This document shows, in pieces, positions 5,283 through 19,957 of a stretch of 64,000 nt of DNA. The notes under the pieces were generated by a model, which made no database searches, was not told the DNA's origin, and saw only the letters and a program-made list of their open reading frames with translations. Every line of letters begins with the position of its first letter. Position 1 is the stretch's first letter. The position numbers were made by a program, and so were the translations under genes. The stretch is from assembly GCA_947307295.1 (NCBI GenBank), contig CAMZIQ010000002.1, positions 80,621 through 144,620 on the forward strand. Direction: 5' to 3'. The stretch comes from an uncultured Pseudomonadota bacterium. GTDB lineage: Bacteria; Pseudomonadota; Alphaproteobacteria; Rs-D84.

Positions 5283-5359
5283 TGGTGGGTGGTATTGGGC
5301 TCGAACCAACGACCTCCACGATGTCAACGTGACGCTCTAGCCAACTGAGCTAACCACCC
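5283..5359 (-). tRNA. tRNA-Val (anticodon GAC), CCA encoded
   Basis: Reverse complement folds as a cloverleaf: GGGTGGT acceptor, D-arm TAGCTCAGTTGGCTAGAGC, anticodon stem TCACG/CGTGG with loop TTGACAT, T-arm GGTCGTTGGTTCGAGCC, then ACCACCC-A-CCA. The 5' half is supplied by the left att repeat of the integrated element. Confidence 0.9.
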
Positions 5360-5364
5360 AAAGC
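5317..5364. repeat. att core copy 1 (attL; equals the 5' half of tRNA-Val(GAC) plus 5 bp)
   Basis: Exact 48-bp direct repeat. Forms part of the intact tRNA. Confidence 0.85.
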
Positions 5365-5370
5365 CACTGA

Positions 5371-5398
5371 ATTATAACATCTAAATTCTAGAATGCAA
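5371..5398 (-). promoter_or_regulatory. element-borne sigma70-like promoter for tRNA-Val (TTGCAT-16-TATAAT on the minus strand)
   Basis: Minus strand reads ttgcat-N16-tataat, ending 11 nt before tRNA +1. A homologous native promoter (TTGCAA-16-TATAAT) sits beside the orphan att copy at 23535..23562. Confidence 0.45.
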
Positions 5399-5511
5399 AT
5401 AAAATCGCTTTTTTTTGCTTTGGTGGCTTTTAGATATAATTTGCTATAGCATCCCCTTTTCACCTACAGTATACTCTAGAGCATGCTCCAAATATGCTCC
5501 TAAATGGTGTT

Positions 5512-5721
5512 TTAGTAGTGTTTATTGGCAAATTTATCTATTCTAATTCGTTTTCCCCATGAATTTACAACAATAACATCTTCACCACTATGAAAAACAT
5601 CACGAGGTTTGTGGAATTCGAGTCTTCGACCACCAATTTGTTTGACTATTACATCATCGTCTTTCCAACGGTATCTCAAATTGCTTTTTGTTTGCATGTT
5701 TAAACCTCTTACTATGATCAT
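5512..5721 (-). CDS. hypothetical small protein (69 aa) at the element left end
   Basis: ORF conserved in both element copies. No motif recognised. Confidence 0.35.
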   Translation of the reverse strand: MIIVRGLNMQTKSNLRYRWKDDDVIVKQIGGRRLEFHKPRDVFHSGEDVIVVNSWGKRIRIDKFANKHY

Positions 5722-5823
5722 TAGAACTAAATTTGGTGCAGATTTTTACCATAAAAGGAATAAAAACACACATTTTAGAGTATAAATATTGTGTAAACAC
5801 TGTTTTCGTGTTATAATTGCTAC

Positions 5824-6975
5824 ATGTTTTATGATGTACAACCGATTCAGAATAAAGAAGACTATAAAAGAATGTTGACTCTTGTAGGTCAGCTTTCGAA
5901 TCTTTTTTCTGAGAGCGATTGTCCTTATTTATCTTACAGGGCTCATGAAAATATATTTTGTAGATTTTTGGGAGCAGAGAATTTAGCCAGATCTGATTGT
6001 TCTGCTGATGCCAAGAAAGATAAAGTTGGTGTTGGTTTGAAAACGTGGATGGGTAACAATGATCAGAAGGTTGCAGAATTTGGGCGTTTGAAGAATAGTT
6101 ATGCTAGTCTTTCTGGAATTGAATTAGTAAAGAAAATAGCTGAATACAGGAATGAACGCATCAGAATTACAAAGAGGTTACATGGATTAGATTCTATGAT
6201 ATACCATGTTGTAAAACGTGTTCCCGGAGCTATGCAAATTCTTGAGGGTGTGTTTGACGAGATAAATATAGAAAACATCACATTATTATCAAACACTGGG
6301 AACGATAACAACACATACTTTACTGATGGAAAACACAAATATCATTTTAGCACATCAAAAAACACTCTGTATATGATATTTGATTTTCTTGAACAGTTGG
6401 ATTCTTTTGAGGTAAAAATATTAGAAAATCCTTATGAATGGTTGTCGAAAGCTACAGATAAAAAAACTATTTCCAAAGACATCAAGAAAGTTGTCAAAGC
6501 TATACAAGAGGAATCAGCAAGAAAACCCCAATTATGTTTGAGATTATATTCGGTAAAGAAGGGTGAAAGGTTTGTTGCTGAGAAGAGTGGTTTAAATCAG
6601 TGGAACGCATCAGGAAGAGCAAGGAATCCTAATGAGTTATATATACCATACCCTAAGGAAGACAGAGACAGAATTCCTAATTTCTTTCCACCAAGAGACA
6701 CACCTTTTACACTACATTTGCCAGATGGTACAGCTATTTCTGCTAAAGTGTGCCAAGCAGACAACAAGGCTATAATGAGTAATCCTAACAGTTTATTGGG
6801 CAAATGGCTTTTGCGAGATGTGTTTGAATTGCCAGATAATACTTTAGTAACATATCAAATGTTAGAAAGGTTTGGTATAGATAGTGTGATTTTCACTAGA
6901 AATGCAGAATTAGATTATTCCGTAGAATTTTCAGAATTGGGCACTTATGAACGTTTTTATGAGATTGAAGACTAA
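5824..6975 (+). CDS. candidate Type II restriction endonuclease (383 aa) directly upstream of the C5-MTase
   Basis: Context only: co-oriented and 45 bp upstream of a Dcm-type MTase on a mobile element. No unambiguous PD-(D/E)xK motif. TATAAT (5812-5817) ends 6 nt before the ATG, suggesting a leaderless transcript. Confidence 0.45.
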   Translation: MFYDVQPIQNKEDYKRMLTLVGQLSNLFSESDCPYLSYRAHENIFCRFLGAENLARSDCSADAKKDKVGVGLKTWMGNNDQKVAEFGRLKNSYASLSGIELVKKIAEYRNERIRITKRLHGLDSMIYHVVKRVPGAMQILEGVFDEINIENITLLSNTGNDNNTYFTDGKHKYHFSTSKNTLYMIFDFLEQLDSFEVKILENPYEWLSKATDKKTISKDIKKVVKAIQEESARKPQLCLRLYSVKKGERFVAEKSGLNQWNASGRARNPNELYIPYPKEDRDRIPNFFPPRDTPFTLHLPDGTAISAKVCQADNKAIMSNPNSLLGKWLLRDVFELPDNTLVTYQMLERFGIDSVIFTRNAELDYSVEFSELGTYERFYEIED

Positions 6976-7017
6976 AAGAGTTTTTGGTTTTTTTATTTTA
7001 TTTTTTTTTGTTTTATT

Positions 7018-7035
7018 TTATTGCGGCGTGCCGCA
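7018..7035. promoter_or_regulatory. perfect palindrome ATTGCGGCGTGCCGCAAT between the R and M genes (attenuator or operator candidate)
   Basis: 8-bp arms ttgcggcg/cgccgcaa, preceded by a long T-rich tract and followed by tttat. A TAAAAT -10-like box and RBS aggag for the MTase lie downstream. Confidence 0.35.
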
Positions 7036-8067
7036 ATTTATGATAGAGTAAAATATGGTTACAGACACAGGAGTTTAAATATGTATACAATAGCATCGTT
7101 TTTTGCCGGTGTTGGTGGCATAGACTTAGGTTTTGAACAAACTAATAAATGCAAAACAATCTATGCTAATGAGTTTGATAGTTATGCAAGTGAGACGTTT
7201 GAAAAAAATTTTCCCGATGTCAAAGTTGATCAACGAGATATACATGATGTGCCTGAAAAAGATATACCAAATGTTGATATTTTTATAGGCGGTTTTCCAT
7301 GTCAGGCATTTTCTATAGCCGGCTACAGACGTGGCTTTGAGGACGAGAAAGGTAGAGGAAATTTGTTTTTTGAGCTTGTTCGTATGATGAAGGCAAAAAA
7401 ACCTCGTGTTGCGTTGTTTGAAAATGTAAAAAATTTAGTTAGCCACGACAAAGGGAATACGTTTCGTGTGATTTGTAATGAGTTGGAAAAATTGGGTTAT
7501 TATTATACATATCATGTTTTGAATGCCATGGATTATGGGAATATGGCTCAAAACAGGGAACGTATATATATAGTAGCATTCAAAAATAAGAAAGATTTTA
7601 TAAAATTCAAATGGGCGAAGACGGTACCTCTAACAACAACAGTAAAAGATATTATAGATTTTACTAAGAAGGTAGACGATAGATTTTATTATACAAAGGG
7701 AAAATACAAGGGTGATATATATGAAAGGCTTGTTGAAGCTACAAAAGGTGACGATCCTAAAAATCCGGCAATATACCAATGGCGTAGAAAATATGTTAGA
7801 AAAAACAAAAGTGGAGTGGTGCCAACTCTAACAGCTAATCAAGGTGAAGGTGGTCATAATGTTTGTATTGTAAAAACAAAATATGGTTTGAGAAAAATGA
7901 CCCCTCAAGAATGCTTTAATACCCAAGGCTTTCCAAAAACGTTTTTGTTACCAAAGCAAAGCGATGCACGTTTATATAAGCAGGCTGGCAATTCTGTTTG
8001 TGTACCGGTTATACACAATATAGCAGAAAACATAGTAACAGCTTTGTCTGACGGCGAAGATAGCTAG
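7021..8067 (+). CDS. DNA (cytosine-5)-methyltransferase, Dcm/HhaI-like; true start probably ATG at 7081 (MYTIASFF) after RBS aggag
   Basis: Motif I FAGVGG, motif IV GGFPCQAFS, motif VI ENVKNL, motif VIII QNRERIYIVAF, motif X GNSV. Short TRD (~328 aa total) as in M.HhaI and M.HaeIII. Confidence 0.9.
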   Translation: MRRAAIYDRVKYGYRHRSLNMYTIASFFAGVGGIDLGFEQTNKCKTIYANEFDSYASETFEKNFPDVKVDQRDIHDVPEKDIPNVDIFIGGFPCQAFSIAGYRRGFEDEKGRGNLFFELVRMMKAKKPRVALFENVKNLVSHDKGNTFRVICNELEKLGYYYTYHVLNAMDYGNMAQNRERIYIVAFKNKKDFIKFKWAKTVPLTTTVKDIIDFTKKVDDRFYYTKGKYKGDIYERLVEATKGDDPKNPAIYQWRRKYVRKNKSGVVPTLTANQGEGGHNVCIVKTKYGLRKMTPQECFNTQGFPKTFLLPKQSDARLYKQAGNSVCVPVIHNIAENIVTALSDGEDS

Positions 8068-8224
8068 AGCTCTTAGTGCGTAGCTGAGATTGTGTAATTA
8101 TTGCAGGCACAACAAAAACTTGAAAAATGTAAGTAACGTGGTATATTTAATGTGAGTACTCGTAAGTGTGCTTGTGACATTAGATAGCGGAACGGGTTTG
8201 ATCACCCAAGTACTAGTCTAGATA

Positions 8225-8346
8225 GTGTCCCAACCGAATGGTTGGGATGCCTTGTGCTATACAATAGGTCTTACCGACTAAAAGCCTTGGGGTTCTGTAC
8301 TTGAATTGATCAACATCCCAACCGCCTAATAAAGCGGTTGTTTTTT
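8225..8346 (+). repeat. divergent copy (C) of a CCAACC-N-GGTTGG leader-like repeat ending in hairpin aaccgc-ctaataaa-gcggtt plus T-run, immediately 5' of the Nuc-like gene
   Basis: Same architecture as repeats A (23624..23816) and B (40478..40660): an internal palindrome cccaaccgaatggttggg, about 85 nt, then ccaaccgcc-loop-gcgg plus Ts. Confidence 0.5.
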
Positions 8347-8871
8347 ATGTTGAAAGCTACTGGATGTTTTTTGTTTTTGATTCTTATATTTGAATTGGTT
8401 GCATGTAATCAAAATGCTATACAACCAATTCAAGAAAACCATAATGATATAAAGATATTTTTTACTCCCGGCACAGAATGTGAAAATAATATTATTGAAA
8501 GAATAAACCAATCAAAAAAAGTGGACATAGCTGTTTATTCAATTACAAACCCTGCTATTACAAAGGCTATTATTTCTGCATATAAACATGGGGTAAATGT
8601 AAGAATTGTGACAGATAAAACACAAGCATCAGGAAAAAAATCATTAGTCTCTCAAATACGTGCTGCCGGAATACCTGTTTTGACTAATAAAAAACACAAG
8701 ATAGAACATAATAAGTTTGCTGTTTTTGACGATGTACATGTTGTTTCTGGATCTTATAACTGGACAACAAACGCAACCAACTATAACAGTGAAAATTGCC
8801 TATTCTTTGATCAACCAGACATGGAATATTCTAAAAGATTTGAGTATCTATGGAAGGTTTATAGTGAATAG
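8338..8871 (+). CDS. Nuc-like phospholipase-D-family (HKD) endonuclease with lipoprotein signal peptide; start likely ATG at 8347
   Basis: HNKFAVFDD HxK(x4)D motif followed by SGSYNWT (PLD/Nuc family). N-terminus MLKATGCFLFLILIFELVAC has the lipobox LVAC. Size ~175 aa, as for pKM101 Nuc. Confidence 0.8.
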   Translation: MFFMLKATGCFLFLILIFELVACNQNAIQPIQENHNDIKIFFTPGTECENNIIERINQSKKVDIAVYSITNPAITKAIISAYKHGVNVRIVTDKTQASGKKSLVSQIRAAGIPVLTNKKHKIEHNKFAVFDDVHVVSGSYNWTTNATNYNSENCLFFDQPDMEYSKRFEYLWKVYSE

Positions 8872-8872
8872 C

Positions 8873-10558
8873 CTAGTAGTATATTTTAAATCCATCGTCT
8901 GTACCCAACTCTTCTATCACATTTTGTATTCTTTTTATTGTTATTTGATCTACTGTTTGAAATCCTGCTTTGCCTTCTATGGATTTTGGATCAACTTTTT
9001 CTGGTATCTGAGAGACGATAAAGTTGAAATTTGTACCTTCTTGTTTGTTTTTTAGCAAGCAGGCATGACTAACTACAGATGCTCCACCATACATCTCAAA
9101 TATCACCCCGGATCGTTGCCCAATAAGATCCAAAAGCATAGTTATAAGTTTTACCGGTTTTTTTGATCCACTAAATGATATATGACCTTCATTTTGTAGT
9201 GTTGATTTAGTGTCTGAAACATCCCATATATCACCTAAAATAACAGAATTTTTCAAGGATCCATCTTCTTGTTTTATAAGGCTATCGCTAAAACGCAAAT
9301 ATAAGGCGTTTTTAGAGCCTTTTTCTAGTAACTTGCCCTTGTACTCGAATATAGGGTCTAAATCGTCTCTATGGGCATAAAAAACGCTTTTATAAGCATT
9401 TGATTTGGGGTAAACAGCTTTGTATAGGTCTTTTGCTATAGTATTGTACATATAATGTTTGAATTCTGGCTCTATTTTGATCATTTTTTCTATGTTTTTA
9501 GATAATAGTTCCATGTTGTGCTTTTTGAATAAGTTTATTATATGAGGTTGCTGTTTCAGGTGGTCAATCAAATATATTTTTTCGTGCACTCCAAAAGTCG
9601 AATTTGGTTTTTTGATAAGATGCTTAAAGGAGTTTTGCCAGTAAGTACTAGATGGAGTGTATAAACGTTGCAGGTGATTTACTTTTGATTTGTCTTTTGC
9701 ATATACTAATAAATAGGATTTTAGTCCGGGTAATCTGTATTGAGTCCTAGATACAATAATAGATGCAGGGGTGCTTGTTTTTATGACGATGTTGTTTATA
9801 AAGTTTTCTCTACCGTATACAGAATCCATAAGCACTTTTACATACGCCATTTCGTGCTCACTTACAGATAGAGCAACAAGTCCGTCTGGTTGAAGAAGTT
9901 TTTTTACTAATTCAAGGCGAGGAAAAAGGTGCTCTAAAAGCTGGCACGTTCCGTCAAATGAAGAATTATATGCTAATACAGCTCTGTTTGATGGCATGTT
10001 AAAGGGTATGTCCCCGTATGCAAGTAACAGTTTTCCTGAGTATTCTGGTAAGAGCCATTTACAAGCATCTATATTATCTTTCACTAGAACAAGATTTTTA
10101 GATTTTTCATTATTTGGTAAGGAGTTGAAAGATTTGTTTGGGTGAAATTTGACTTTTGTTGGAGTGTTTGTTAGTTTTTCTGCCCTTTCTCTTCCATTAA
10201 AGTATAGAAATAGTCCGTTTTTGTTTTGTGTTTGTGTGGTGTTGTTTTTAAAGTCTTCTAGCGATCCAATTATTCCTTCGTATCTATACAGTTGCCCCCA
10301 TTTTTTACCATTTTCAACTTTGCTTATAATTCCGGTGTTGCAGAGAAGTTTGAGTGTGTTGGTGATGGTTGGTCTTGGGATTTTTGTTTGTTTGCATAAA
10401 GTTGTGATGTCGAGTTGAGGGGTTTTGCAAAAAGTATCAAATATGGCTAATGCTGTGTTTTTTGATCTACCAATGTTTTCTATTTTTGCTCGATCTGTAG
10501 ATATAATTTCTGTATTGAATGTATTTATTGTTTTTCTGATGGTTTGTTTTTTTATCAT
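8873..10558 (-). CDS. winged-HTH fused to a divergent N6/N4 amino-methyltransferase-like domain (PF01555-like fold with degenerate catalytic and SAM motifs)
   Basis: N-terminal wHTH-like segment AIFDTFCKTPQLDITTLCKQTKIPRPTITNTLKLLCNTGIISK. Motif IV position reads LLLAYGDIPFNMP (DIPF rather than DPPY). Typical post-motif segments: LQPDGLVALSVSEH..., NNIVIKT, YLLVYAKDKSK. C-terminal motif I position reads GVIFEMYGGASVV rather than VLDPFxGSGTT. Confidence 0.65.
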   Translation of the reverse strand: MIKKQTIRKTINTFNTEIISTDRAKIENIGRSKNTALAIFDTFCKTPQLDITTLCKQTKIPRPTITNTLKLLCNTGIISKVENGKKWGQLYRYEGIIGSLEDFKNNTTQTQNKNGLFLYFNGRERAEKLTNTPTKVKFHPNKSFNSLPNNEKSKNLVLVKDNIDACKWLLPEYSGKLLLAYGDIPFNMPSNRAVLAYNSSFDGTCQLLEHLFPRLELVKKLLQPDGLVALSVSEHEMAYVKVLMDSVYGRENFINNIVIKTSTPASIIVSRTQYRLPGLKSYLLVYAKDKSKVNHLQRLYTPSSTYWQNSFKHLIKKPNSTFGVHEKIYLIDHLKQQPHIINLFKKHNMELLSKNIEKMIKIEPEFKHYMYNTIAKDLYKAVYPKSNAYKSVFYAHRDDLDPIFEYKGKLLEKGSKNALYLRFSDSLIKQEDGSLKNSVILGDIWDVSDTKSTLQNEGHISFSGSKKPVKLITMLLDLIGQRSGVIFEMYGGASVVSHACLLKNKQEGTNFNFIVSQIPEKVDPKSIEGKAGFQTVDQITIKRIQNVIEELGTDDGFKIYY

Positions 10559-10577
10559 GGTACGCTCTCTCTTGAAT

Positions 10578-10604
10578 CATTATTTTTTATAGCAGAAAAT
10601 AATG
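10578..10604. promoter_or_regulatory. 9-bp-stem inverted repeat cattatttt-N9-aaaataatg 20 bp upstream of the MTase-like gene
   Basis: Perfect inverted repeat seen directly. Lies in the divergent intergenic region between the MTase-like gene (-) and the AlpA-like gene (+). Confidence 0.3.
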
Positions 10605-10692
10605 AATAATGCCAATCTAAAAAAAATAACAAAGTATACATTTTTATCATAATTTTGAGTTCTAATATACATACAAAAAAGGATCTATACTA

Positions 10693-10875
10693 ATGCTAAC
10701 AAAACCAGAATTCACACAAGAAAAACTATTGACGGTTACAGAGGCAGCTAATATTTTGAATTTAAAACCTTCTACCTTATACCGTATCAAACAAAATGAA
10801 AGGTCTCCCAAAAAGGTCAAAGTTTGTGGCAGGCTTTATTTTACTCTTTCTTCTATAAACAACATAATGGGCTAA
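10693..10875 (+). CDS. AlpA-like HTH DNA-binding protein (prophage regulatory / excisionase family)
   Basis: LLTVTEAANILNLKPSTLYR helix-turn-helix and the GRLYF / SINNI C-terminal pattern of the AlpA family. RBS aagga 8 nt upstream. Convergently overlaps the 3' end of the Rep gene by ~100 bp. Confidence 0.65.
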   Translation: MLTKPEFTQEKLLTVTEAANILNLKPSTLYRIKQNERSPKKVKVCGRLYFTLSSINNIMG

Positions 10876-11709
10876 TCTCTTTTCTAATATCTTTCTCAAT
10901 TTGTTTATGGGGTTTGGTAAGAGTAATTCGCCACGTTGTTTGAGCCATAAAGCAAAGATAATGACGGTTTTCAGTTGCTTTATATCAAAATAATTCACTT
11001 TATGTGGGTTGAATCTCTCTTTGCCAAACCAAGTCTTCATTGTAAACAGCTCACTACCTTCGTTGATATGTGGATCTTCGTTGTCTTTTAATTCTTTGAC
11101 AAGGTAAGCACAAATTCCCTCTTTATCATAAACACATCTCAAATCAAAAACGGTCTTATAAAACTTATATTTATCAACGATTTTACTAATTGCATCACAT
11201 AATCTGTAGCCAATATATTCGTCATGATCTGTACTTTTGAAGAGAATATGAACATGCCACCAAAAATCATTCTTACCATGTTCCATTACACCAACACATT
11301 GTAAAGCGTTTCTAGTCCAATGATTTTTTTGTTCTATGGCAAGAGTTTGAATTTCTTTGAATAATTTTTTATAAGATTTTTTAGCGTCTTCTCTGTTTCT
11401 TGTTCTTCTAAAACCGGATTGGGTGCATCTGGGTAGTTTGATTGTCAAAAGATAAGAATAGTCTTCTTGCATTAGTTGTTTTTGCCAATATTTCCTAGAG
11501 TCTTGATATTCAGTTTGGTGATTCCTATAAAAACCATTCAATTCTTCATTTATCTCATTTGTAAATTTAGACATGATTTCCTCTAGCGTTCTAAACCTTC
11601 TTCTTATTTTCAATCCACGTTCTTCCACATAAAACGTTCTTCTTTTTATTGTTTTACTTAGTTGGGAATGTTGAACATCTAAATTAGAAAATAAATCATA
11701 ACCATTCAT
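10777..11709 (-). CDS. HUH-superfamily rolling-circle Rep / MobT-like relaxase candidate (310 aa)
   Basis: WWHVHILF (HUH motif) followed by Tyr-containing segments (DEYIGYRL, ICAYLVKELK), as in Rep_trans/MobT proteins. Divergent from the regulator gene across a promoter/operator region. Confidence 0.55.
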   Translation of the reverse strand: MNGYDLFSNLDVQHSQLSKTIKRRTFYVEERGLKIRRRFRTLEEIMSKFTNEINEELNGFYRNHQTEYQDSRKYWQKQLMQEDYSYLLTIKLPRCTQSGFRRTRNREDAKKSYKKLFKEIQTLAIEQKNHWTRNALQCVGVMEHGKNDFWWHVHILFKSTDHDEYIGYRLCDAISKIVDKYKFYKTVFDLRCVYDKEGICAYLVKELKDNEDPHINEGSELFTMKTWFGKERFNPHKVNYFDIKQLKTVIIFALWLKQRGELLLPNPINKLRKILEKRLAHYVVYRRKSKIKPATNFDLFGRPFILFDTV

Positions 11710-11971
11710 TTATTACCTTCTTGGTTTACTTTGTTTAATGAATGATCAACACACCTTTTGTTTTGGGTGCTAATCAGTTTGAATCAAAAAGCCCGGATTT
11801 ATAAGGGTTGAAGCGTAATCCAATCCAACAGGAGCGATTTGATTTATTTCCTAGAACTGTTTTTTTTCATAAAGTTGTAAAATTTTTCATTCTTTGTGAT
11901 TTTTTTGAGGAACGATTCGTAAAAAAAGACAAATTCGATACAAAAATAGGTGTTTTTTCTGGCAGGAGGCA

Positions 11972-12029
11972 AGTGTATACACTTTGTGTATAAAAAATAC
12001 TTGACATCGGTACACAAAAAGTGTATACT
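11972..12029 (+). promoter_or_regulatory. switch region: consensus sigma70 promoter (TTGACA 12001-12006, 17 bp spacer, TATACT 12024-12029) with GTGTAYAC operator repeats, including the 12-bp palindrome AGTGTATACACT at 11972-11983
   Basis: Sequence read directly. Operator-like motifs at 11972-83, 11986-93, 12008-15 (inverted) and 12019-29 overlap the -35 and -10 boxes. RBS aaagaggtg then ATG of the HTH regulator. Confidence 0.6.
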
Positions 12030-12058
12030 GTAGCTGTAACAAAAACAAAAGAGGTGTT

Positions 12059-12601
12059 TTGATGGAAAAATATAGAACAAAGTTTGGTACATGGATCTCT
12101 GTATTTTGTGCCAGACATGGATTAAACATCGCAAGGGCTGCTTATGAATTGGGGTTGGCTCCTACTACATTGGCATCTATTGTAGCTGGAAGACATCCTT
12201 TACCGGTGTTCTTGCGTGAAAATATCATAGCGACTTTCGGAAGATATTTGTCCGGAACAGATATTGCCGAAATGGATCAAAGCATTGTTGATACAGAGGC
12301 AGGAGCTGTGATTGTGTCAAGGAACTATAAAAAATACGTCAGTGCACAAACAGTGAATGACAAAGAATGGTGTCTAAAACTGATGGATGTAATGGCTAAA
12401 GCGACCAATAAAATGAACAAGGAGGAATCTGAAGAAATTTATGCTCGTTTGCAAGAGATTGCTGAACGCCCTGCACCAGTATCTATAGAATTAGACAAAG
12501 ATATAGATATTGAAACGCTGAGACAAGATATTCGCAGACGGTATAAAGACCCTGTAAAAACAGAACAAATTGTAGAAAAAATAAAAGAACTGAGACAATA
12601 A
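12059..12601 (+). CDS. XRE/Cro-like HTH transcriptional regulator (element repressor candidate), acidic coiled-coil C-terminus
   Basis: N-terminal HTH WISVFCARHGLNIARAAYELGLAPTTLASIVAGRH. Immediately downstream of the operator-rich promoter. Confidence 0.6.
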   Translation: MMEKYRTKFGTWISVFCARHGLNIARAAYELGLAPTTLASIVAGRHPLPVFLRENIIATFGRYLSGTDIAEMDQSIVDTEAGAVIVSRNYKKYVSAQTVNDKEWCLKLMDVMAKATNKMNKEESEEIYARLQEIAERPAPVSIELDKDIDIETLRQDIRRRYKDPVKTEQIVEKIKELRQ

Positions 12602-12715
12602 AAAATAAAGTGGGTGAACAAGCTGCAACCTGCTCACCCTAACAAACACCAAACGAGTTGGATGTCTGCCACAAAGTCATTTTAGCTCGTTTGGATCAAA
12701 AATCAAGAACCAAAG

Positions 12716-14029
12716 GTGACTAAAATGAGCAAACAAGAAAATATTACACAAACATTAGTAAATAAAATCGTATACAACATCGAAAAAGGCAACACGTCTG
12801 AATTATGTGATGTGTGGGATTCTAAGACATCAGGTTTTGGTATACGAGTTGGCAAAACCAATGCATCTTTTATTTTCAAATATAGAAATAAGGCAAACAA
12901 AGCCCAAACAAAAACATTTGGTAAAATAACCGAAATGTCTGTTGCTGAGGCTAGAAATCTATTGGACGCATTTAAACCAACAATAAAATCTGATCTTGCA
13001 ACAATTCAGAAAACTAATAAGAAATATACGGTGAAAGATTTATGTGAAAAATATCTTGCGGAACACCAAACTCGTGCAACAACGAAAAAACAAGACGAAA
13101 GCAGGATTGAAAGACACGTCTTGCCAACACTTGGCAACATACCATTACATTTATTGACAGCTAAAGATATTATGAATGCACAAACGGCTATTGCAAACGG
13201 TGATAAAAAAATAATTATAGCAGGACATAAAAACCCAAATAATCCACATTCATATATCAAAGTATCTGGCGGTCAAGGTGCTGCTAAAAGGGTTATGGAA
13301 ATGCTGAAAACAATTTTGAATTTTGCAGAAGACGAAGAGTTGATTGAAAAAAATCCTATGAATTCTCGTAAATTCAAAAAAATCAAATACGATAAAAAAG
13401 AAACAGCGTATCTCGAAAACAACAATTATGAAAATCTTGGTTATTTGTTGAAAAAGCATGAACAGCAATCAAAGAAAAGCAATCAAAGTGTGTTGTTTAT
13501 AAAATTATTGGCTTTGACGGGCTGTCGTAAAGGTGAATTATTAGGTCTTACTTGGAATCGAGTAGATTTTACCAACCAATATTTTGTGTTTGCTAAAACA
13601 AAAACTACAGGGGAACAAAAACGATATTTTGGATCTGCAGCAAAAAGATTATTGTTAGATATGCACCAAAAAGCTACATCCAACTACTTGTTCCCTAGTA
13701 TTACAAAAACAGGTACACATAGAAAAGATTGTTTGAGAGCTTTAAAGCAGATTTGTAAAACAGCACAAGAAAACAAAAGTCAATTTGATGCAATACAAAA
13801 ACTAACCCTACATGGTCTTAGACATTCATTTTCAACAATGTGTAACACCCTCTCTTTTCCCGATGTAATTAGAGAAGGACTTATGGGGCACAAGAATGGT
13901 GGTGTACAATATATTTATACACACAATACACATAACACAATGATTGAACATGCAGATAAAGTATCAGAAAGTATCAACACGTTGTTAGATACGGGATGTA
14001 AAAAAGCAGAATTGGAAAACAACAACTAA
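12716..14029 (+). CDS. int: tyrosine recombinase / phage integrase (P4-like, DUF4102 N-terminus); start possibly ATG 12725
   Basis: Box I LTGCRKGELLGLTWNRVD (Arg), box II HGLRHSF (H-x-x-R), and catalytic Tyr in HKNGGVQYIYTH. Adjacent to the tRNA att site. Confidence 0.92.
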   Translation: MTKMSKQENITQTLVNKIVYNIEKGNTSELCDVWDSKTSGFGIRVGKTNASFIFKYRNKANKAQTKTFGKITEMSVAEARNLLDAFKPTIKSDLATIQKTNKKYTVKDLCEKYLAEHQTRATTKKQDESRIERHVLPTLGNIPLHLLTAKDIMNAQTAIANGDKKIIIAGHKNPNNPHSYIKVSGGQGAAKRVMEMLKTILNFAEDEELIEKNPMNSRKFKKIKYDKKETAYLENNNYENLGYLLKKHEQQSKKSNQSVLFIKLLALTGCRKGELLGLTWNRVDFTNQYFVFAKTKTTGEQKRYFGSAAKRLLLDMHQKATSNYLFPSITKTGTHRKDCLRALKQICKTAQENKSQFDAIQKLTLHGLRHSFSTMCNTLSFPDVIREGLMGHKNGGVQYIYTHNTHNTMIEHADKVSESINTLLDTGCKKAELENNN

Positions 14030-14041
14030 AGAGGTAAAAAA

Positions 14042-14263
14042 ATGAAATTTATAACAGAAAGAGAATTAGCTAAATTTTTATCGAATGAATATGGTTTGCC
14101 AACATCGAAAAAATCATTAGAAAAATTACGTGCAAAAGGTAAAGCACCAAATTTTAGAGTTTGGGGTGGAAAAATTGTATATGAAAAGCAAGATGTACAG
14201 ACATGGCTCAACAATCAAATGGCGATTTGTTACAAGTACACAATGCCAAAATATAGCATATAA
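14042..14263 (+). CDS. excisionase-like HTH protein (HTH_17/AlpA-Xis family)
   Basis: ITERELAKFL ... NFRVWGGKIVYEKQDVQTWL pattern. Immediately follows the integrase, with RBS gaggtaaaaaaATG. Confidence 0.55.
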   Translation: MKFITERELAKFLSNEYGLPTSKKSLEKLRAKGKAPNFRVWGGKIVYEKQDVQTWLNNQMAICYKYTMPKYSI

Positions 14264-14273
14264 AAAAAGCAAA

Positions 14274-14291
14274 ATGCTCCCAATATGCTCC
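14274..14291 (+). promoter_or_regulatory. pair of ATGCTCC direct repeats 11 bp apart at the element right end (putative integrase/Xis arm-type sites); equivalent pair at the left end, 5483-5500
   Basis: atgctcc at 14274-80 and 14285-91. atgctcc at 5483-89 and 5494-5500. Same orientation and spacing (one helical turn) at both arms. Confidence 0.35.
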
Positions 14292-14340
14292 AAAATGATA
14301 AAAACCACAAAACTAACACAAACACTAGAGAATCAAAAAA

Positions 14341-14367
14341 CCCCGGAAATCCGGGGTAAATCTTTTT
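14341..14367 (+). terminator. Rho-independent terminator after xis (ccccgg-aaat-ccgggg then T-run)
   Basis: Hairpin and tctttttgtt read directly. Last feature before att. Confidence 0.5.
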
Positions 14368-14398
14368 GTTGGGGGGCTAAAATCTTCATAACGAATTT

Positions 14399-14446
14399 CA
14401 CGATGTCAACGTGACGCTCTAGCCAACTGAGCTAACCACCCAAAGC
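14399..14446. repeat. att core copy 2 (junction between the two element units; partial tRNA-Val 5' half)
   Basis: Exact 48-bp direct repeat. Preceded by the element right end and followed by the element left end. Confidence 0.85.
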
Positions 14447-14593
14447 CACTGAATTATAACATCTAAATTCTAGAATGCAAATAAAATCGCTTTTTTTTGC
14501 TTTGGTGGCTTTTAGATATAATTTGCTATAGCATCCCCTTTTCACCTACAGTATACTCTAGAGCATGCTCCAAATATGCTCCTAAATGGTGTT

Positions 14594-14803
14594 TTAGTAG
14601 TGTTTATTGGCAAATTTATCTATTCTAATTCGTTTTCCCCATGAATTTACAACAATAACATCTTCACCACTATGAAAAACATCACGAGGTTTGTGGAATT
14701 CGAGTCTTCGACCACCAATTTGTTTGACTATTACATCATCGTCTTTCCAACGGTATCTCAAATTGCTTTTTGTTTGCATGTTTAAACCTCTTACTATGAT
14801 CAT
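14594..14803 (-). CDS. hypothetical small protein (copy 2 of 5512..5721)
   Basis: Identical translation at offset +9082. Confidence 0.35.
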   Translation of the reverse strand: MIIVRGLNMQTKSNLRYRWKDDDVIVKQIGGRRLEFHKPRDVFHSGEDVIVVNSWGKRIRIDKFANKHY

Positions 14804-14905
14804 TAGAACTAAATTTGGTGCAGATTTTTACCATAAAAGGAATAAAAACACACATTTTAGAGTATAAATATTGTGTAAACACTGTTTTCGTGTTATAATT
14901 GCTAC

Positions 14906-16057
14906 ATGTTTTATGATGTACAACCGATTCAGAATAAAGAAGACTATAAAAGAATGTTGACTCTTGTAGGTCAGCTTTCGAATCTTTTTTCTGAGAGCGA
15001 TTGTCCTTATTTATCTTACAGGGCTCATGAAAATATATTTTGTAGATTTTTGGGAGCAGAGAATTTAGCCAGATCTGATTGTTCTGCTGATGCCAAGAAA
15101 GATAAAGTTGGTGTTGGTTTGAAAACGTGGATGGGTAACAATGATCAGAAGGTTGCAGAATTTGGGCGTTTGAAGAATAGTTATGCTAGTCTTTCTGGAA
15201 TTGAATTAGTAAAGAAAATAGCTGAATACAGGAATGAACGCATCAGAATTACAAAGAGGTTACATGGATTAGATTCTATGATATACCATGTTGTAAAACG
15301 TGTTCCCGGAGCTATGCAAATTCTTGAGGGTGTGTTTGACGAGATAAATATAGAAAACATCACATTATTATCAAACACTGGGAACGATAACAACACATAC
15401 TTTACTGATGGAAAACACAAATATCATTTTAGCACATCAAAAAACACTCTGTATATGATATTTGATTTTCTTGAACAGTTGGATTCTTTTGAGGTAAAAA
15501 TATTAGAAAATCCTTATGAATGGTTGTCGAAAGCTACAGATAAAAAAACTATTTCCAAAGACATCAAGAAAGTTGTCAAAGCTATACAAGAGGAATCAGC
15601 AAGAAAACCCCAATTATGTTTGAGATTATATTCGGTAAAGAAGGGTGAAAGGTTTGTTGCTGAGAAGAGTGGTTTAAATCAGTGGAACGCATCAGGAAGA
15701 GCAAGGAATCCTAATGAGTTATATATACCATACCCTAAGGAAGACAGAGACAGAATTCCTAATTTCTTTCCACCAAGAGACACACCTTTTACACTACATT
15801 TGCCAGATGGTACAGCTATTTCTGCTAAAGTGTGCCAAGCAGACAACAAGGCTATAATGAGTAATCCTAACAGTTTATTGGGCAAATGGCTTTTGCGAGA
15901 TGTGTTTGAATTGCCAGATAATACTTTAGTAACATATCAAATGTTAGAAAGGTTTGGTATAGATAGTGTGATTTTCACTAGAAATGCAGAATTAGATTAT
16001 TCCGTAGAATTTTCAGAATTGGGCACTTATGAACGTTTTTATGAGATTGAAGACTAA
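14906..16057 (+). CDS. candidate Type II restriction endonuclease (copy 2)
   Basis: Identical translation at offset +9082. Confidence 0.45.
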   Translation: MFYDVQPIQNKEDYKRMLTLVGQLSNLFSESDCPYLSYRAHENIFCRFLGAENLARSDCSADAKKDKVGVGLKTWMGNNDQKVAEFGRLKNSYASLSGIELVKKIAEYRNERIRITKRLHGLDSMIYHVVKRVPGAMQILEGVFDEINIENITLLSNTGNDNNTYFTDGKHKYHFSTSKNTLYMIFDFLEQLDSFEVKILENPYEWLSKATDKKTISKDIKKVVKAIQEESARKPQLCLRLYSVKKGERFVAEKSGLNQWNASGRARNPNELYIPYPKEDRDRIPNFFPPRDTPFTLHLPDGTAISAKVCQADNKAIMSNPNSLLGKWLLRDVFELPDNTLVTYQMLERFGIDSVIFTRNAELDYSVEFSELGTYERFYEIED

Positions 16058-16102
16058 AAGAGTTTTTGGTTTTTTTATTTTATTTTTTTTTGTTTTATTT
16101 TA

Positions 16103-17149
16103 TTGCGGCGTGCCGCAATTTATGATAGAGTAAAATATGGTTACAGACACAGGAGTTTAAATATGTATACAATAGCATCGTTTTTTGCCGGTGTTGGTGG
16201 CATAGACTTAGGTTTTGAACAAACTAATAAATGCAAAACAATCTATGCTAATGAGTTTGATAGTTATGCAAGTGAGACGTTTGAAAAAAATTTTCCCGAT
16301 GTCAAAGTTGATCAACGAGATATACATGATGTGCCTGAAAAAGATATACCAAATGTTGATATTTTTATAGGCGGTTTTCCATGTCAGGCATTTTCTATAG
16401 CCGGCTACAGACGTGGCTTTGAGGACGAGAAAGGTAGAGGAAATTTGTTTTTTGAGCTTGTTCGTATGATGAAGGCAAAAAAACCTCGTGTTGCGTTGTT
16501 TGAAAATGTAAAAAATTTAGTTAGCCACGACAAAGGGAATACGTTTCGTGTGATTTGTAATGAGTTGGAAAAATTGGGTTATTATTATACATATCATGTT
16601 TTGAATGCCATGGATTATGGGAATATGGCTCAAAACAGGGAACGTATATATATAGTAGCATTCAAAAATAAGAAAGATTTTATAAAATTCAAATGGGCGA
16701 AGACGGTACCTCTAACAACAACAGTAAAAGATATTATAGATTTTACTAAGAAGGTAGACGATAGATTTTATTATACAAAGGGAAAATACAAGGGTGATAT
16801 ATATGAAAGGCTTGTTGAAGCTACAAAAGGTGACGATCCTAAAAATCCGGCAATATACCAATGGCGTAGAAAATATGTTAGAAAAAACAAAAGTGGAGTG
16901 GTGCCAACTCTAACAGCTAATCAAGGTGAAGGTGGTCATAATGTTTGTATTGTAAAAACAAAATATGGTTTGAGAAAAATGACCCCTCAAGAATGCTTTA
17001 ATACCCAAGGCTTTCCAAAAACGTTTTTGTTACCAAAGCAAAGCGATGCACGTTTATATAAGCAGGCTGGCAATTCTGTTTGTGTACCGGTTATACACAA
17101 TATAGCAGAAAACATAGTAACAGCTTTGTCTGACGGCGAAGATAGCTAG
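16103..17149 (+). CDS. DNA (cytosine-5)-methyltransferase (copy 2; start probably 16163)
   Basis: Identical translation at offset +9082, with the same m5C motifs. Confidence 0.9.
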   Translation: MRRAAIYDRVKYGYRHRSLNMYTIASFFAGVGGIDLGFEQTNKCKTIYANEFDSYASETFEKNFPDVKVDQRDIHDVPEKDIPNVDIFIGGFPCQAFSIAGYRRGFEDEKGRGNLFFELVRMMKAKKPRVALFENVKNLVSHDKGNTFRVICNELEKLGYYYTYHVLNAMDYGNMAQNRERIYIVAFKNKKDFIKFKWAKTVPLTTTVKDIIDFTKKVDDRFYYTKGKYKGDIYERLVEATKGDDPKNPAIYQWRRKYVRKNKSGVVPTLTANQGEGGHNVCIVKTKYGLRKMTPQECFNTQGFPKTFLLPKQSDARLYKQAGNSVCVPVIHNIAENIVTALSDGEDS

Positions 17150-17306
17150 AGCTCTTAGTGCGTAGCTGAGATTGTGTAATTATTGCAGGCACAACAAAAA
17201 CTTGAAAAATGTAAGTAACGTGGTATATTTAATGTGAGTACTCGTAAGTGTGCTTGTGACATTAGATAGCGGAACGGGTTTGATCACCCAAGTACTAGTC
17301 TAGATA

Positions 17307-17428
17307 GTGTCCCAACCGAATGGTTGGGATGCCTTGTGCTATACAATAGGTCTTACCGACTAAAAGCCTTGGGGTTCTGTACTTGAATTGATCAACATCC
17401 CAACCGCCTAATAAAGCGGTTGTTTTTT
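17307..17428 (+). repeat. leader-like repeat C (copy 2) ending in a terminator hairpin at the Nuc-like start
   Basis: Identical to 8225..8346 at +9082. Confidence 0.5.
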
Positions 17429-17953
17429 ATGTTGAAAGCTACTGGATGTTTTTTGTTTTTGATTCTTATATTTGAATTGGTTGCATGTAATCAAAATGCT
17501 ATACAACCAATTCAAGAAAACCATAATGATATAAAGATATTTTTTACTCCCGGCACAGAATGTGAAAATAATATTATTGAAAGAATAAACCAATCAAAAA
17601 AAGTGGACATAGCTGTTTATTCAATTACAAACCCTGCTATTACAAAGGCTATTATTTCTGCATATAAACATGGGGTAAATGTAAGAATTGTGACAGATAA
17701 AACACAAGCATCAGGAAAAAAATCATTAGTCTCTCAAATACGTGCTGCCGGAATACCTGTTTTGACTAATAAAAAACACAAGATAGAACATAATAAGTTT
17801 GCTGTTTTTGACGATGTACATGTTGTTTCTGGATCTTATAACTGGACAACAAACGCAACCAACTATAACAGTGAAAATTGCCTATTCTTTGATCAACCAG
17901 ACATGGAATATTCTAAAAGATTTGAGTATCTATGGAAGGTTTATAGTGAATAG
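17420..17953 (+). CDS. Nuc-like PLD-family endonuclease lipoprotein (copy 2)
   Basis: Identical translation at offset +9082. Confidence 0.8.
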   Translation: MFFMLKATGCFLFLILIFELVACNQNAIQPIQENHNDIKIFFTPGTECENNIIERINQSKKVDIAVYSITNPAITKAIISAYKHGVNVRIVTDKTQASGKKSLVSQIRAAGIPVLTNKKHKIEHNKFAVFDDVHVVSGSYNWTTNATNYNSENCLFFDQPDMEYSKRFEYLWKVYSE

Positions 17954-17954
17954 C

Positions 17955-19640
17955 CTAGTAGTATATTTTAAATCCATCGTCTGTACCCAACTCTTCTATC
18001 ACATTTTGTATTCTTTTTATTGTTATTTGATCTACTGTTTGAAATCCTGCTTTGCCTTCTATGGATTTTGGATCAACTTTTTCTGGTATCTGAGAGACGA
18101 TAAAGTTGAAATTTGTACCTTCTTGTTTGTTTTTTAGCAAGCAGGCATGACTAACTACAGATGCTCCACCATACATCTCAAATATCACCCCGGATCGTTG
18201 CCCAATAAGATCCAAAAGCATAGTTATAAGTTTTACCGGTTTTTTTGATCCACTAAATGATATATGACCTTCATTTTGTAGTGTTGATTTAGTGTCTGAA
18301 ACATCCCATATATCACCTAAAATAACAGAATTTTTCAAGGATCCATCTTCTTGTTTTATAAGGCTATCGCTAAAACGCAAATATAAGGCGTTTTTAGAGC
18401 CTTTTTCTAGTAACTTGCCCTTGTACTCGAATATAGGGTCTAAATCGTCTCTATGGGCATAAAAAACGCTTTTATAAGCATTTGATTTGGGGTAAACAGC
18501 TTTGTATAGGTCTTTTGCTATAGTATTGTACATATAATGTTTGAATTCTGGCTCTATTTTGATCATTTTTTCTATGTTTTTAGATAATAGTTCCATGTTG
18601 TGCTTTTTGAATAAGTTTATTATATGAGGTTGCTGTTTCAGGTGGTCAATCAAATATATTTTTTCGTGCACTCCAAAAGTCGAATTTGGTTTTTTGATAA
18701 GATGCTTAAAGGAGTTTTGCCAGTAAGTACTAGATGGAGTGTATAAACGTTGCAGGTGATTTACTTTTGATTTGTCTTTTGCATATACTAATAAATAGGA
18801 TTTTAGTCCGGGTAATCTGTATTGAGTCCTAGATACAATAATAGATGCAGGGGTGCTTGTTTTTATGACGATGTTGTTTATAAAGTTTTCTCTACCGTAT
18901 ACAGAATCCATAAGCACTTTTACATACGCCATTTCGTGCTCACTTACAGATAGAGCAACAAGTCCGTCTGGTTGAAGAAGTTTTTTTACTAATTCAAGGC
19001 GAGGAAAAAGGTGCTCTAAAAGCTGGCACGTTCCGTCAAATGAAGAATTATATGCTAATACAGCTCTGTTTGATGGCATGTTAAAGGGTATGTCCCCGTA
19101 TGCAAGTAACAGTTTTCCTGAGTATTCTGGTAAGAGCCATTTACAAGCATCTATATTATCTTTCACTAGAACAAGATTTTTAGATTTTTCATTATTTGGT
19201 AAGGAGTTGAAAGATTTGTTTGGGTGAAATTTGACTTTTGTTGGAGTGTTTGTTAGTTTTTCTGCCCTTTCTCTTCCATTAAAGTATAGAAATAGTCCGT
19301 TTTTGTTTTGTGTTTGTGTGGTGTTGTTTTTAAAGTCTTCTAGCGATCCAATTATTCCTTCGTATCTATACAGTTGCCCCCATTTTTTACCATTTTCAAC
19401 TTTGCTTATAATTCCGGTGTTGCAGAGAAGTTTGAGTGTGTTGGTGATGGTTGGTCTTGGGATTTTTGTTTGTTTGCATAAAGTTGTGATGTCGAGTTGA
19501 GGGGTTTTGCAAAAAGTATCAAATATGGCTAATGCTGTGTTTTTTGATCTACCAATGTTTTCTATTTTTGCTCGATCTGTAGATATAATTTCTGTATTGA
19601 ATGTATTTATTGTTTTTCTGATGGTTTGTTTTTTTATCAT
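17955..19640 (-). CDS. wHTH plus degenerate amino-MTase-like protein (copy 2)
   Basis: Identical translation at offset +9082. Confidence 0.65.
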   Translation of the reverse strand: MIKKQTIRKTINTFNTEIISTDRAKIENIGRSKNTALAIFDTFCKTPQLDITTLCKQTKIPRPTITNTLKLLCNTGIISKVENGKKWGQLYRYEGIIGSLEDFKNNTTQTQNKNGLFLYFNGRERAEKLTNTPTKVKFHPNKSFNSLPNNEKSKNLVLVKDNIDACKWLLPEYSGKLLLAYGDIPFNMPSNRAVLAYNSSFDGTCQLLEHLFPRLELVKKLLQPDGLVALSVSEHEMAYVKVLMDSVYGRENFINNIVIKTSTPASIIVSRTQYRLPGLKSYLLVYAKDKSKVNHLQRLYTPSSTYWQNSFKHLIKKPNSTFGVHEKIYLIDHLKQQPHIINLFKKHNMELLSKNIEKMIKIEPEFKHYMYNTIAKDLYKAVYPKSNAYKSVFYAHRDDLDPIFEYKGKLLEKGSKNALYLRFSDSLIKQEDGSLKNSVILGDIWDVSDTKSTLQNEGHISFSGSKKPVKLITMLLDLIGQRSGVIFEMYGGASVVSHACLLKNKQEGTNFNFIVSQIPEKVDPKSIEGKAGFQTVDQITIKRIQNVIEELGTDDGFKIYY

Positions 19641-19774
19641 GGTACGCTCTCTCTTGAATCATTATTTTTTATAGCAGAAAATAATGAATAATGCCAATCT
19701 AAAAAAAATAACAAAGTATACATTTTTATCATAATTTTGAGTTCTAATATACATACAAAAAAGGATCTATACTA

Positions 19775-19957
19775 ATGCTAACAAAACCAGAATTCACACA
19801 AGAAAAACTATTGACGGTTACAGAGGCAGCTAATATTTTGAATTTAAAACCTTCTACCTTATACCGTATCAAACAAAATGAAAGGTCTCCCAAAAAGGTC
19901 AAAGTTTGTGGCAGGCTTTATTTTACTCTTTCTTCTATAAACAACATAATGGGCTAA
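19775..19957 (+). CDS. AlpA-like HTH protein (copy 2)
   Basis: Identical translation at offset +9082. Confidence 0.65.
   Translation: MLTKPEFTQEKLLTVTEAANILNLKPSTLYRIKQNERSPKKVKVCGRLYFTLSSINNIMG

Follow-up and report, generated by a model that had tools for sequence, protein, structure and literature searches.

Is a DNA methyltransferase (MTase) with unusual catalytic and cofactor motifs a dead enzyme or a working one? The question is raised by a gene in the window, i.e., the whole 64,000-nucleotide stretch of contig CAMZIQ010000002.1 from an uncultured alphaproteobacterium. The gene lies at 8873..10558 (-), starts with ATG and encodes 561 amino acids (aa). It belongs to an integrative element that stands twice in tandem, and an identical second gene copy was found in the other element copy at 17955..19640 (-), i.e., at offset 9082 (tblastn 100%). 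In the first-pass annotation, the product was described as a winged helix-turn-helix (wHTH) domain fused to an amino-MTase with eroded motifs, and was considered a candidate pseudo-methyltransferase. The reading preferred here, and considered fairly probable, is that the protein would be an active, orphan, self-regulating MTase derived from the Mod subunit of Type III restriction-modification (R-M) systems. The gene is part of the backbone of the element, which encodes an HUH-type Rep, and its conserved alternative loop would probably tune the binding of S-adenosylmethionine (SAM).

The fold and the lineage were recognized by domain and structure searches. PF01555 (N6_N4_Mtase) matched residues 180-506 at 54.3 bits, with a cutoff of 26.7, and MTase_III was the best match among the PADLOC Type III MTase models (7.9e-43). 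In a phmmer search against solved structures, the best matches were the Mods of EcoP15I (4zcf, 3.4e-22), H. pylori (6k0w, 1.8e-19) and Mbo45V (7dsu, 2.8e-13). An AlphaFold2 (AF2) model was built with 36 homologs, and its mean predicted local distance difference test score was 80.7. When this model was searched against PDB with Foldseek, the EcoP15I Mod came first (1e-24), followed by 6k0w and 7dsu and then by CcrM, MboIIA and PvuII. All of the top 40 were beta-class MTases. NCBIfam and PHROGs showed no informative MTase family, and only weak matches resembling wHTH domains or replication initiators were found there, at residues 50-160.

In the phmmer alignments to the EcoP15I and 6k0w Mods, the DIPF of the query was aligned to DPPY. 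The query segments VIFEMYGGASVVSHA, LLLAYGDIPFNMPS, GVIFEMYGGASVVSHA and FIVSQIPE were paired with the Mod segments IVLDFFAGSGTTAHT, VKMIYIDPPYNTGK, GIVLDFFAGSGTTAHT and FITVQLDE, respectively. The motif order of the beta class, i.e., IV, target recognition domain (TRD), X, I and II, was confirmed, with motif IV at residues 183-186, X at 466-468, I at 488-496 and II at 517-520. The coordinates of motifs IV, I and II were verified by translation.

The N-terminal part was modeled by AF2 with winged-helix topology at residues 33-93 (10280..10462, -), followed by the MTase core. Helices were placed at residues 33-45, 51-58 and 62-75, and strands at 48-50, 78-81 and 90-93. The helix at residues 62-75, 'RPTITNTLKLL', is predicted as the recognition helix. 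The wHTH families of Pfam (HTH_IclR, MarR_2 and HTH_24) matched 11-12 of the 36 aligned family members, and PF01555 matched all 36. The wHTH matches of the query itself were weak, i.e., MarR_2 at 0.011 and the C-terminus of PADLOC SoFic at 3.6e-7. The protein combines a winged helix at its N-terminus with a beta-class amino-MTase core whose nearest relatives are Type III Mods. The domain plan and the scaffold order proposed in the first-pass annotation were therefore right, and the two deviating motifs, DIPF and EMYGGASVV, were located by it correctly.

The meaning of these two motifs is seen when homologs are compared. A search of 5.8 billion proteins gave approximately 52 full-length homologs with 38-99% identity and 534-598 aa, and 36 of these were aligned. 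They form a previously undescribed family of approximately 50 proteins from uncultured gut and rumen Alphaproteobacteria, i.e., orphan MTases that derive from Type III Mod and carry a winged helix. The family consensus reads D-I-P-Y-N-M-P-S at motif IV and the canonical V-L-D-x-F-A-G-S-G-T-T at motif I.

Motif IV of the query, DIPF (residues 183-186; 10001..10012, -), is the equivalent of DPPY in the alignment to EcoP15I and 6k0w. The homologs carry DPPY, DIPY, DVPY or DSPY at this site, and DILY was found in two proteins. D183 never varies, and the motif always ends with an aromatic residue, Y or F, with F in the query alone. Measured against the consensus (D/N/S)-P-P-(Y/F/W), the query departs at the first P, which is Ile, and retains D183, P185 and the aromatic residue. 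In beta-class motif IV, catalysis is the task of the first residue, and the last, for which Y, F and W are all accepted, stacks on the base (PMC7544214). Active N6-adenine MTases with NIPY and NLPY are also known, i.e., Erm (PMC9386465) and KsgA (bioRxiv 2021.09.15.460497). Because position 2 is variable in the family, D183 and the aromatic residue are kept and the NIPY and NLPY enzymes are active, DIPF is no evidence of inactivity.

Other residues of the active site were placed in the same way. D161-N162 (10073..10078, -), an 'xDN' element 22 residues before motif IV, is invariant in the family and aligns to the GDN of EcoP15I and 6k0w. Judged from its spacing relative to D8/A9 of M1.HpyAVI (PMC5173035), this element would contact the adenine of SAM. 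In motif X, K466-K467-P468 (9155..9163, -), both lysines are invariant and align to EcoP15I residues 417-418. The K418 of EcoP15I touches the flipped adenine. Motif II, QIPE (residues 517-520; 8999..9010, -), has Q517 and E520 invariant in the family alignment. The residues invariant in all 36 homologs include D161, N162, D183, K466, K467, G492, Q517 and E520.

Motif I is the more unusual site. The segment EMYGGASVV (residues 488-496; 9071..9097, -) was identified by alignment, with G492 as the invariant first Gly. The AF2 model is confident here, with a strand at 483-488, a loop at 489-494 and a helix at 495-507. In the family, motif I exists in two discrete states. The canonical state is D-x-[FY]-A-G-S-[GA]-T-[TM], and the variant state, E-[PM]-Y-G-G-[AV]-S-V-[VM], was found in the query and in P0002, P0003, P0004, P0009, P0018 and P0022. 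The columns that separate the two states are 488, 489, 491, 493, 494, 495, 500 and 515, and there are no others in the 561 residues. They cover the motif I loop, its helix and strand beta2, and none of them is contributed by the TRD or motif IV.

The seven variant carriers are approximately 45-70% identical to each other, with 28% invariant columns. D183, P185, N187, K466, K467, P468, Y490, G492, Q517 and E520 are kept in all seven. By a rough estimate, the chance that nine key residues are all kept in these carriers is about 1e-5. Random erosion of motif I was ruled out, since the same state is present in seven diverged proteins and the discriminating columns are confined to 488-515.

To see how common the loop is elsewhere, the C-terminal 107 aa were scanned with HMMER against 1.84 billion representative proteins, and the best 150 matches gave 147 informative C-lobes of Mods. 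The first Gly of motif I was present in all 147. Compared with F-x-G-x-G, the query reads Y-G-G-A-S, i.e., the aromatic residue and the first Gly are present and the second Gly is Ser. At this second position the C-lobes had G in 74, A in 43, S in 23 and C in 7, so that Ser is ordinary. Motif II was also ordinary, as Q[LI]PE is its canonical form in these proteins. The rare residues were, by motif position, E at 1 and A at 6 (2/147 each), V at 8 (4/147) and V at 9 (2/147). The complete variant loop was found nowhere outside the family among these best 150 matches. Because it is rare in the 147 Mods but common to the seven carriers, the loop is truly unusual yet conserved, not decayed. We regard this form of motif I as an alternative allele of the cofactor loop that selection maintains.

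What this allele would do to SAM binding can be considered from the mutants of M1.HpyAVI. The pocket residues of M1.HpyAVI and EcoP15I were placed onto the query through motif alignment to the published descriptions. In M1.HpyAVI, D29A in motif IV and E216A at the end of beta2 abolished SAM binding, and G197 was reported as crucial (PMC5173035). M196A and G199A left SAM binding unaffected, while S198A and T200A, which replace two ligands of the SAM carboxylate, weakened the dissociation constant approximately 6-fold (PMC5173035). The essential D29, G197 and E216 correspond to D183, G492 and E520 of the query, all invariant, and the aromatic Y490 is kept as well. The query deviates only at positions that are tolerant in M1.HpyAVI, i.e., G491, A493, S494 and V495. 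The variant thus changes the part of the loop that contacts the SAM carboxylate in M1.HpyAVI, with S to A, T to V and a Ser one position later. The effect of the variant loop is probably an adjusted SAM affinity and not a loss of binding. An HHpred or PF01555 alignment had been suggested in the first-pass annotation as a way to confirm which catalytic residues are lost. In the alignments made here, every residue essential in M1.HpyAVI is retained.

Selection on the gene was estimated from nucleotide comparisons. One relative, L009, is an independent assembly with 98% identity, i.e., a metagenome-assembled genome (MAG) from yak omasum. Its MTase gene differs from the query gene by 12 nucleotides, 10 of them at third codon positions, and only two amino acid changes result, S304R and S310A. 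The ratio of nonsynonymous to synonymous substitution rates (dN/dS) was 0.16 against L001 and 0.15 against L005. The MTase gene is under purifying selection.

Recombination within the gene was also detected. From position -200 onward and over most of the coding sequence, the genes of P0018, a variant carrier, and P0020, a canonical member, have a DNA identity of 86-100%. Two tracts are less similar, i.e., nt 1416-1595 (aa ~472-532, motifs X-I-II), with an identity of 54-64%, and nt 519-788 (aa ~173-263), with 67-73%. These divergent tracts indicate that the motif I state moved between lineages by short-tract recombination. Because both states persist and recombine, they behave as functional alleles and not as a degenerating site.

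The mosaic can be located in L006:8001-9725 and L033:3120-4823, whose MTase genes are elsewhere 86-100% identical. Its second tract (aa ~173-263) is the motif IV-VI side of the pocket, and the active site is lined by both tracts. A separate observation concerns P0078, a protein of 182 aa on a 1,022-bp contig from ENA. It is 97-99% identical to the C-terminal cofactor module of the query over approximately 70 residues and is annotated with a UvrD-helicase Pfam match. It may be a chimeric call of an open reading frame (ORF) on a short contig, or another junction 3' of the MTase gene in a different variant of the element.

A further question is whether the two states differ in chemistry. In one explanation, the side of the pocket that holds the methionine carboxylate has been remodeled. 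The variant would then accept another cofactor or a SAM analogue, or would have switched from adenine N6 to cytosine N4, and would leave a different mark from that of canonical members. The discriminating residues do lie entirely in the cofactor loop, its helix and beta2, the two states act like exchangeable alleles, and the variant state was unseen outside the family among the matches considered above. Characterized Type III Mods that produce N4-methylcytosine (m4C) are described with 'FGG' at motif I and DPPY/F, and the variant reads [FY]-G-G. However, a G at motif position 4 occurs in 11 of the 147 ordinary Mods as well, no variant-specific column was found in the TRD or motif IV, and no accessory gene for cofactor biosynthesis was linked in the loci examined. 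This explanation is drawn wholly by inference, and we consider it quite improbable.

A broader form of the idea is that D-x-F-A-G-S-G-T-T and E-P-Y-G-G-A-S-V-V differ in function as alleles of the cofactor pocket and are shuffled between otherwise nearly identical genes by short-tract recombination. The variant might then use a different cofactor, leave a different mark (m4C vs N6-methyladenine, m6A) or resist a counter-measure directed at SAM. This is speculative and is given a low probability. For the active SAM-dependent MTase preferred here, m6A is the most likely product, and m4C would be the alternative.

The protein is closest to Type III Mods, which were its top matches in both sequence and fold. 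The motif order IV-VIII, TRD, X, I-III is shared, and so are the N-lobe with GDN...D-x-P-aromatic, the KKP of motif X and the Q[LI]PE of motif II. As in these Mods, the protein probably acts as a dimer with division of labour.

There are also differences from Mods. No Res gene, i.e., a superfamily 2 helicase with a PD-(D/E)xK nuclease, is present in the 9,082-bp element. The Res-like genes found beside homologs in L002 and L005 accompany their own MTase as separate cargo. The alignment stops at approximately residue 510 of the 644 of EcoP15I, and the Res-contacting C-terminal domain (CTD) is therefore missing from the query. PF18273, which represents the CTD, and PF12564, the N-terminal domain of Mod, were found neither in the query nor in the 52 close homologs, whereas more distant true Mods do carry them. 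In the query, the PF12564 domain is replaced by a long helix and the wHTH domain. Motif IV has Ile at position 2 and motif I reads E-x-Y-G-G-A-S-V-V, in contrast to the Mods. The gene also lacks the repeats of phase variation. A phase-variable mod gene (phasevarion) was considered for this locus and rejected, as no simple-sequence repeats were found in the ORF. From these comparisons, it appears that the parts with which a Type III Mod binds Res were lost from the protein and that an N-terminal winged helix was gained.

Orphan MTases on mobile elements are already known, e.g., the prophage-borne M.EcoGII and others (PMC7544214), and the query resembles them as a beta-class amino-MTase without a cognate nuclease. 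Unlike the M.EcoGII type, it has a full Type III-like TRD, with a mean identity of 47% in the family, and a wHTH domain.

The possible role of the wHTH domain is connected with the leader of the gene. The MTase gene is divergent from an AlpA-like gene at 10693-10875 (+), as was noted in the first-pass annotation, and an inverted repeat with a 9-bp stem had been reported in its leader. The repeat exists, but its stem is a perfect 10 bp. The palindrome TCATTATTTT-N9-AAAATAATGA spans 10577..10605 (no strand assigned), 19-47 nt upstream of the start codon, and is a candidate operator. The same palindrome is present in L009. In L032 it reads CCTTTATTTT-N9-AAAATAAAGG, and in L002, L010 and L013 CCTTTATTT-N11-AAATAAAGG. 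L005 has (CCA)TGATTTT-N9-AAAATCA(AGG), and L030 has (CG)TTATTTT-N9-AAAATAA(TG).

The position of the palindrome is conserved in eight diverged loci, with symmetric compensatory changes. In the alignment of the eight sequences, 88.8% of the cells were paired, compared with 45-59% in slid controls, and three pairs were changed on both sides. The type of palindrome goes with the class of recognition helix. The class 'RPT[IV]TNT' goes with the window-type palindrome, 'SRQx[VI]TK' with a leader of the 'ACTTTTGCA' type (L006, L007, L008, L031 and L033), and 'ARKNVINS' with a different palindrome (L029). The leader repeat was also tried as an intrinsic terminator, but no terminator-like site was found, and promoter-like matches were at chance level.

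A precedent for such an arrangement is M.SsoII. Through its N-terminal helix-turn-helix (HTH) region, this MTase occupies a quasi-palindrome within its promoter at 2:1 stoichiometry and represses its own gene (PMC3978073). M.SsoII and M.Ecl18kI share with the query an N-terminal HTH region on an MTase and a palindrome or quasi-palindrome in the promoter or leader of the gene, placed in a divergent intergenic region. M.SsoII itself is a C5-cytosine MTase of a Type II R-M system with an Xre-like HTH of approximately 70 aa, whereas the query is an orphan beta-class amino-MTase with a winged helix. Furthermore, the divergent partner of the query is an AlpA-like regulator and not a restriction enzyme, and its operator is a candidate. 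By analogy, the conserved palindrome suggests autoregulation as in M.SsoII.

Several points weigh against an active and self-regulating MTase. The correlation between wHTH class and palindrome is confounded, because the leader lies directly beside the N-terminal coding region and the two are inherited together. Instead of the wHTH domain, AlpA or a 180-aa HTH protein of the element could bind the palindrome, or it could act as an RNA hairpin. In the pocket, S493A, T495V and T496V remove three hydroxyl residues that are present in more than 90% of the 147 Mod C-lobes, and the joint effect of the S-to-A and T-to-V changes on SAM affinity could be larger than the approximately 6-fold effects of the single mutants. 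P489M and Y186F are changes private to the query. The mapping of M1.HpyAVI residues is a motif alignment and not a solved complex. The biological role, protection or regulation, is deduced from context, and all of the hosts are known as uncultured MAGs.

The changes in the pocket bring back the explanation given in the first-pass annotation, i.e., that the variant lineage lost SAM binding or catalysis and persists as a DNA-binding regulator or repressor through its wHTH domain, perhaps with a base-flipping pocket. In M1.HpyAVI, the SAM carboxylate is contacted by Ser and Thr hydroxyls that are indeed missing from the variant motif I, the substitutions of this motif are very rare among related Mods, and the query adds its two private changes. 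The wHTH domain with its conserved operator-like palindrome would offer a plausible non-catalytic job. The beta class also has precedents with non-consensus motifs, i.e., the pseudo-MTases METTL14 (EPPL) and ciliate MTA9 (NALW) (PMC7544214). These two have lost motif IV chemistry and are obligate partners of an active paralog.

However, the known cases lost the acid or the aromatic residue of motif IV, whereas D183, P185 and the aromatic residue 186 are kept here, together with the motif I Gly and the motif II Glu, and dN/dS is approximately 0.15. K466, K467, Y490, G492, Q517 and E520 are likewise kept across variant carriers that have diverged to approximately 45-70% identity. One loop state in seven carriers points to selection for a specific conformation. 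The loop also recombines into otherwise canonical genes, a behaviour that would hardly be expected of an allele without function. A diverged active paralog that could serve as heterodimer partner was sought in the 64-kb window, and just the two identical gene copies were found. It is therefore unlikely, though not negligibly so, that the query is a dead enzyme. The word 'eroded' does not fit motifs of which one is the family norm (DIPx) and the other is shared by seven carriers, with D183, G492 and E520 invariant. As for the suggested role of regulator, the part that relies on the wHTH domain is plausible and gains from the conserved palindrome, but the accompanying loss of methyl transfer is not borne out.

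How an active, self-regulating enzyme would work can be outlined from its relatives. Judging from the Mod structures, the protein would dimerize and, with SAM as donor, methylate a target base that has been flipped into its D-x-P-[YF] pocket. SAM would be held by D161, Y490, G492, E520 and D183, as their conservation suggests. The two wHTH domains of the dimer would bind the leader palindrome TnATTTT-N9-AAAATnA and repress the MTase gene, in the manner of M.SsoII. This binding may also affect the divergent AlpA promoter. Methylation of element or host DNA would then serve as a self-mark, protecting or regulating the element when it moves between hosts.

The gene next to the MTase gene offers a further explanation. 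A gene at 8338..8871 (+) encodes a 177-aa protein of the phospholipase D (PLD)/NucT-like nuclease type, with a lipoprotein-type signal (PF13091, 3.5e-25, and NucT models). With its intact HKD motif (HNKFAVFD) and its LVAC lipobox, it is probably an exported lipoprotein nuclease. The first-pass annotation suggested as one possibility that the two proteins form a defence module, in which the MTase-like protein is the sensor or partner of the nuclease. The two genes are adjacent and convergent in the window, and PLD proteins are known in DISARM (DrmC) and Dpd systems. The PLD gene also adjoins the MTase gene in L009 and L022. In L022, a PLD homolog with 63% identity is placed directly 3' of a distant family member (38% identical), in the same convergent position.

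These three are the only cases of adjacency in approximately 25 loci, so the wider recurrence of the fusion beside Nuc-like genes that would be expected of a module was not seen. The PLD gene is absent from L001, which has a 71%-identical MTase homolog at the same insertion site, and from approximately 22 of the 25 loci overall, where unrelated defence cargo holds the position. With its lipoprotein-type signal and best matches to NucT-type proteins, the nuclease should not meet cytoplasmic DNA. In L009, the PLD protein is only 84% identical amid flanks that are 98-100% identical, and it therefore behaves like cargo. The PLD gene is variable cargo and not a partner. Locus context and signal together largely refute the MTase-PLD partnership, and the two-gene module is left as a highly improbable explanation.

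The MTase gene itself has a stable surrounding. The integrative element has 9,082 bp and was delimited by sequence identity at offset 9082. Copy 1 is at 5317..14398 and copy 2, a 100% identical tandem copy, is at 14399..23480 (no strand assigned to either), and the identity extends from 5317-14446 to 14399-23528. A 48-bp att repeat, CACGATGTCAACGTGACGCTCTAGCCAACTGAGCTAACCACCCAAAGC, is placed at 5317-5364, 14399-14446 and 23481-23528 and overlaps tRNA-Val(GAC), located at 5283-5359 (-). In general, the att overlap is the 3' portion of the tRNA gene. Because this tRNA gene is on the minus strand, the repeated part is its 5' portion, and an intact tRNA would therefore be transcribed from within the element. 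The independent assembly L009 appears to hold a single copy, and the tandem duplication could be either biologically meaningful or an assembly artefact. Tandem arrays are used by integrated rolling-circle elements such as CTXphi for the production of progeny DNA.

Upstream of the MTase gene and on the same strand, a gene for an HUH-type rolling-circle Rep-like protein of 310 aa was found at 10777..11709 (-). The motifs 'IKLP', 'WHxH' (H152, H154) and 'CxYxVKE' (Y202, K205, E206) are invariant in nine homologs, and the query Rep reads IKLP, WHVH and CAYLVKE. PF23343 (REP_ORF2-G2P) matched seven of the nine Rep homologs, at best with 1.4e-5, and the query Rep itself had no Pfam match. The divergent AlpA/excisionase-like gene encodes an HTH_17 protein (PF12728, 1.8e-6; PHROG excisionase/regulator). 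On the antisense strand, it covers approximately 100 nt at the 3' end of the Rep gene, and this unusual overlapping pair is conserved in approximately 17 loci.

The triad of Rep, antisense HTH_17 and wHTH-MTase genes recurs in these approximately 17 loci, i.e., L001-L007, L009-L014, L017, L032 and L033, which were taken from metagenomes and GTDB genomes. The recombinase differs among these elements and is either a tyrosine integrase or a serine recombinase. In the window, a tyrosine integrase gene lies at 12716-14029 (+), between the gene of the 180-aa HTH-like protein (12059-12601, +) and that of another HTH_17 protein (14042-14263, +). An ORF of 69 aa (5512-5721 and 14594-14803, -), at the end of the element nearest to the tRNA gene, matched no family. 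In L012-L017 and L024, homologs of this ORF with 36-43% identity were observed, either close to the MTase gene or at the ends of the elements.

Directly downstream of the MTase gene, unrelated defence systems are found from locus to locus. In the window, this cargo is a Type II R-M system at 5824..8067 (+), composed of an NgoFVII-like restriction endonuclease (REase) at 5824-6975 and a C5 cytosine MTase at 7021-8067 (PF20731 and PF00145; PADLOC REase_II 3.9e-89 and MTase_II 4e-117). Besides NgoFVII R-M, the cargo includes ResIII with Eco57I, Res with Mod and UvrD/PDDEXK, GmrSD with Type IIG, AAA_15/21, YjiT/YjiV, and MmeI-like with SNF2. In L001, the R-M cargo is 96% identical in nucleotides (window 5283-8221 vs L001:11728-14673) and the backbone 76%. 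In L009, the backbone is 98% identical, and the R-M system is replaced by another cargo of 3.5 kb (L009:10448-13917). The site just 3' of the MTase gene is a hotspot for the exchange of defence cargo.

All hosts of the family are uncultured gut or rumen Alphaproteobacteria, i.e., Ca. Enterousia and relatives. In L032, a CcrM-like MTase gene with PF01555 and a RAMA domain was observed just outside the element (L032:3862-4989). The hosts therefore own a canonical beta-class adenine MTase besides the element-borne one.

This locus is a cautionary case, because motif deviations that resembled those of a dead enzyme turned out to be conserved family variants once homologs were compared. For the elements, the MTase gene is a hallmark of the backbone and a convenient marker of small HUH-Rep elements with a swappable defence hotspot. 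With its two recombining states, the loop amounts to a natural experiment on the question of which residues of the SAM loop beta-class MTases can do without. Should the two states differ in activity, they would represent unusual allelic variation at the cofactor site on a mobile element. Should they differ in function, they would provide these elements with an epigenetic writer that can be switched.

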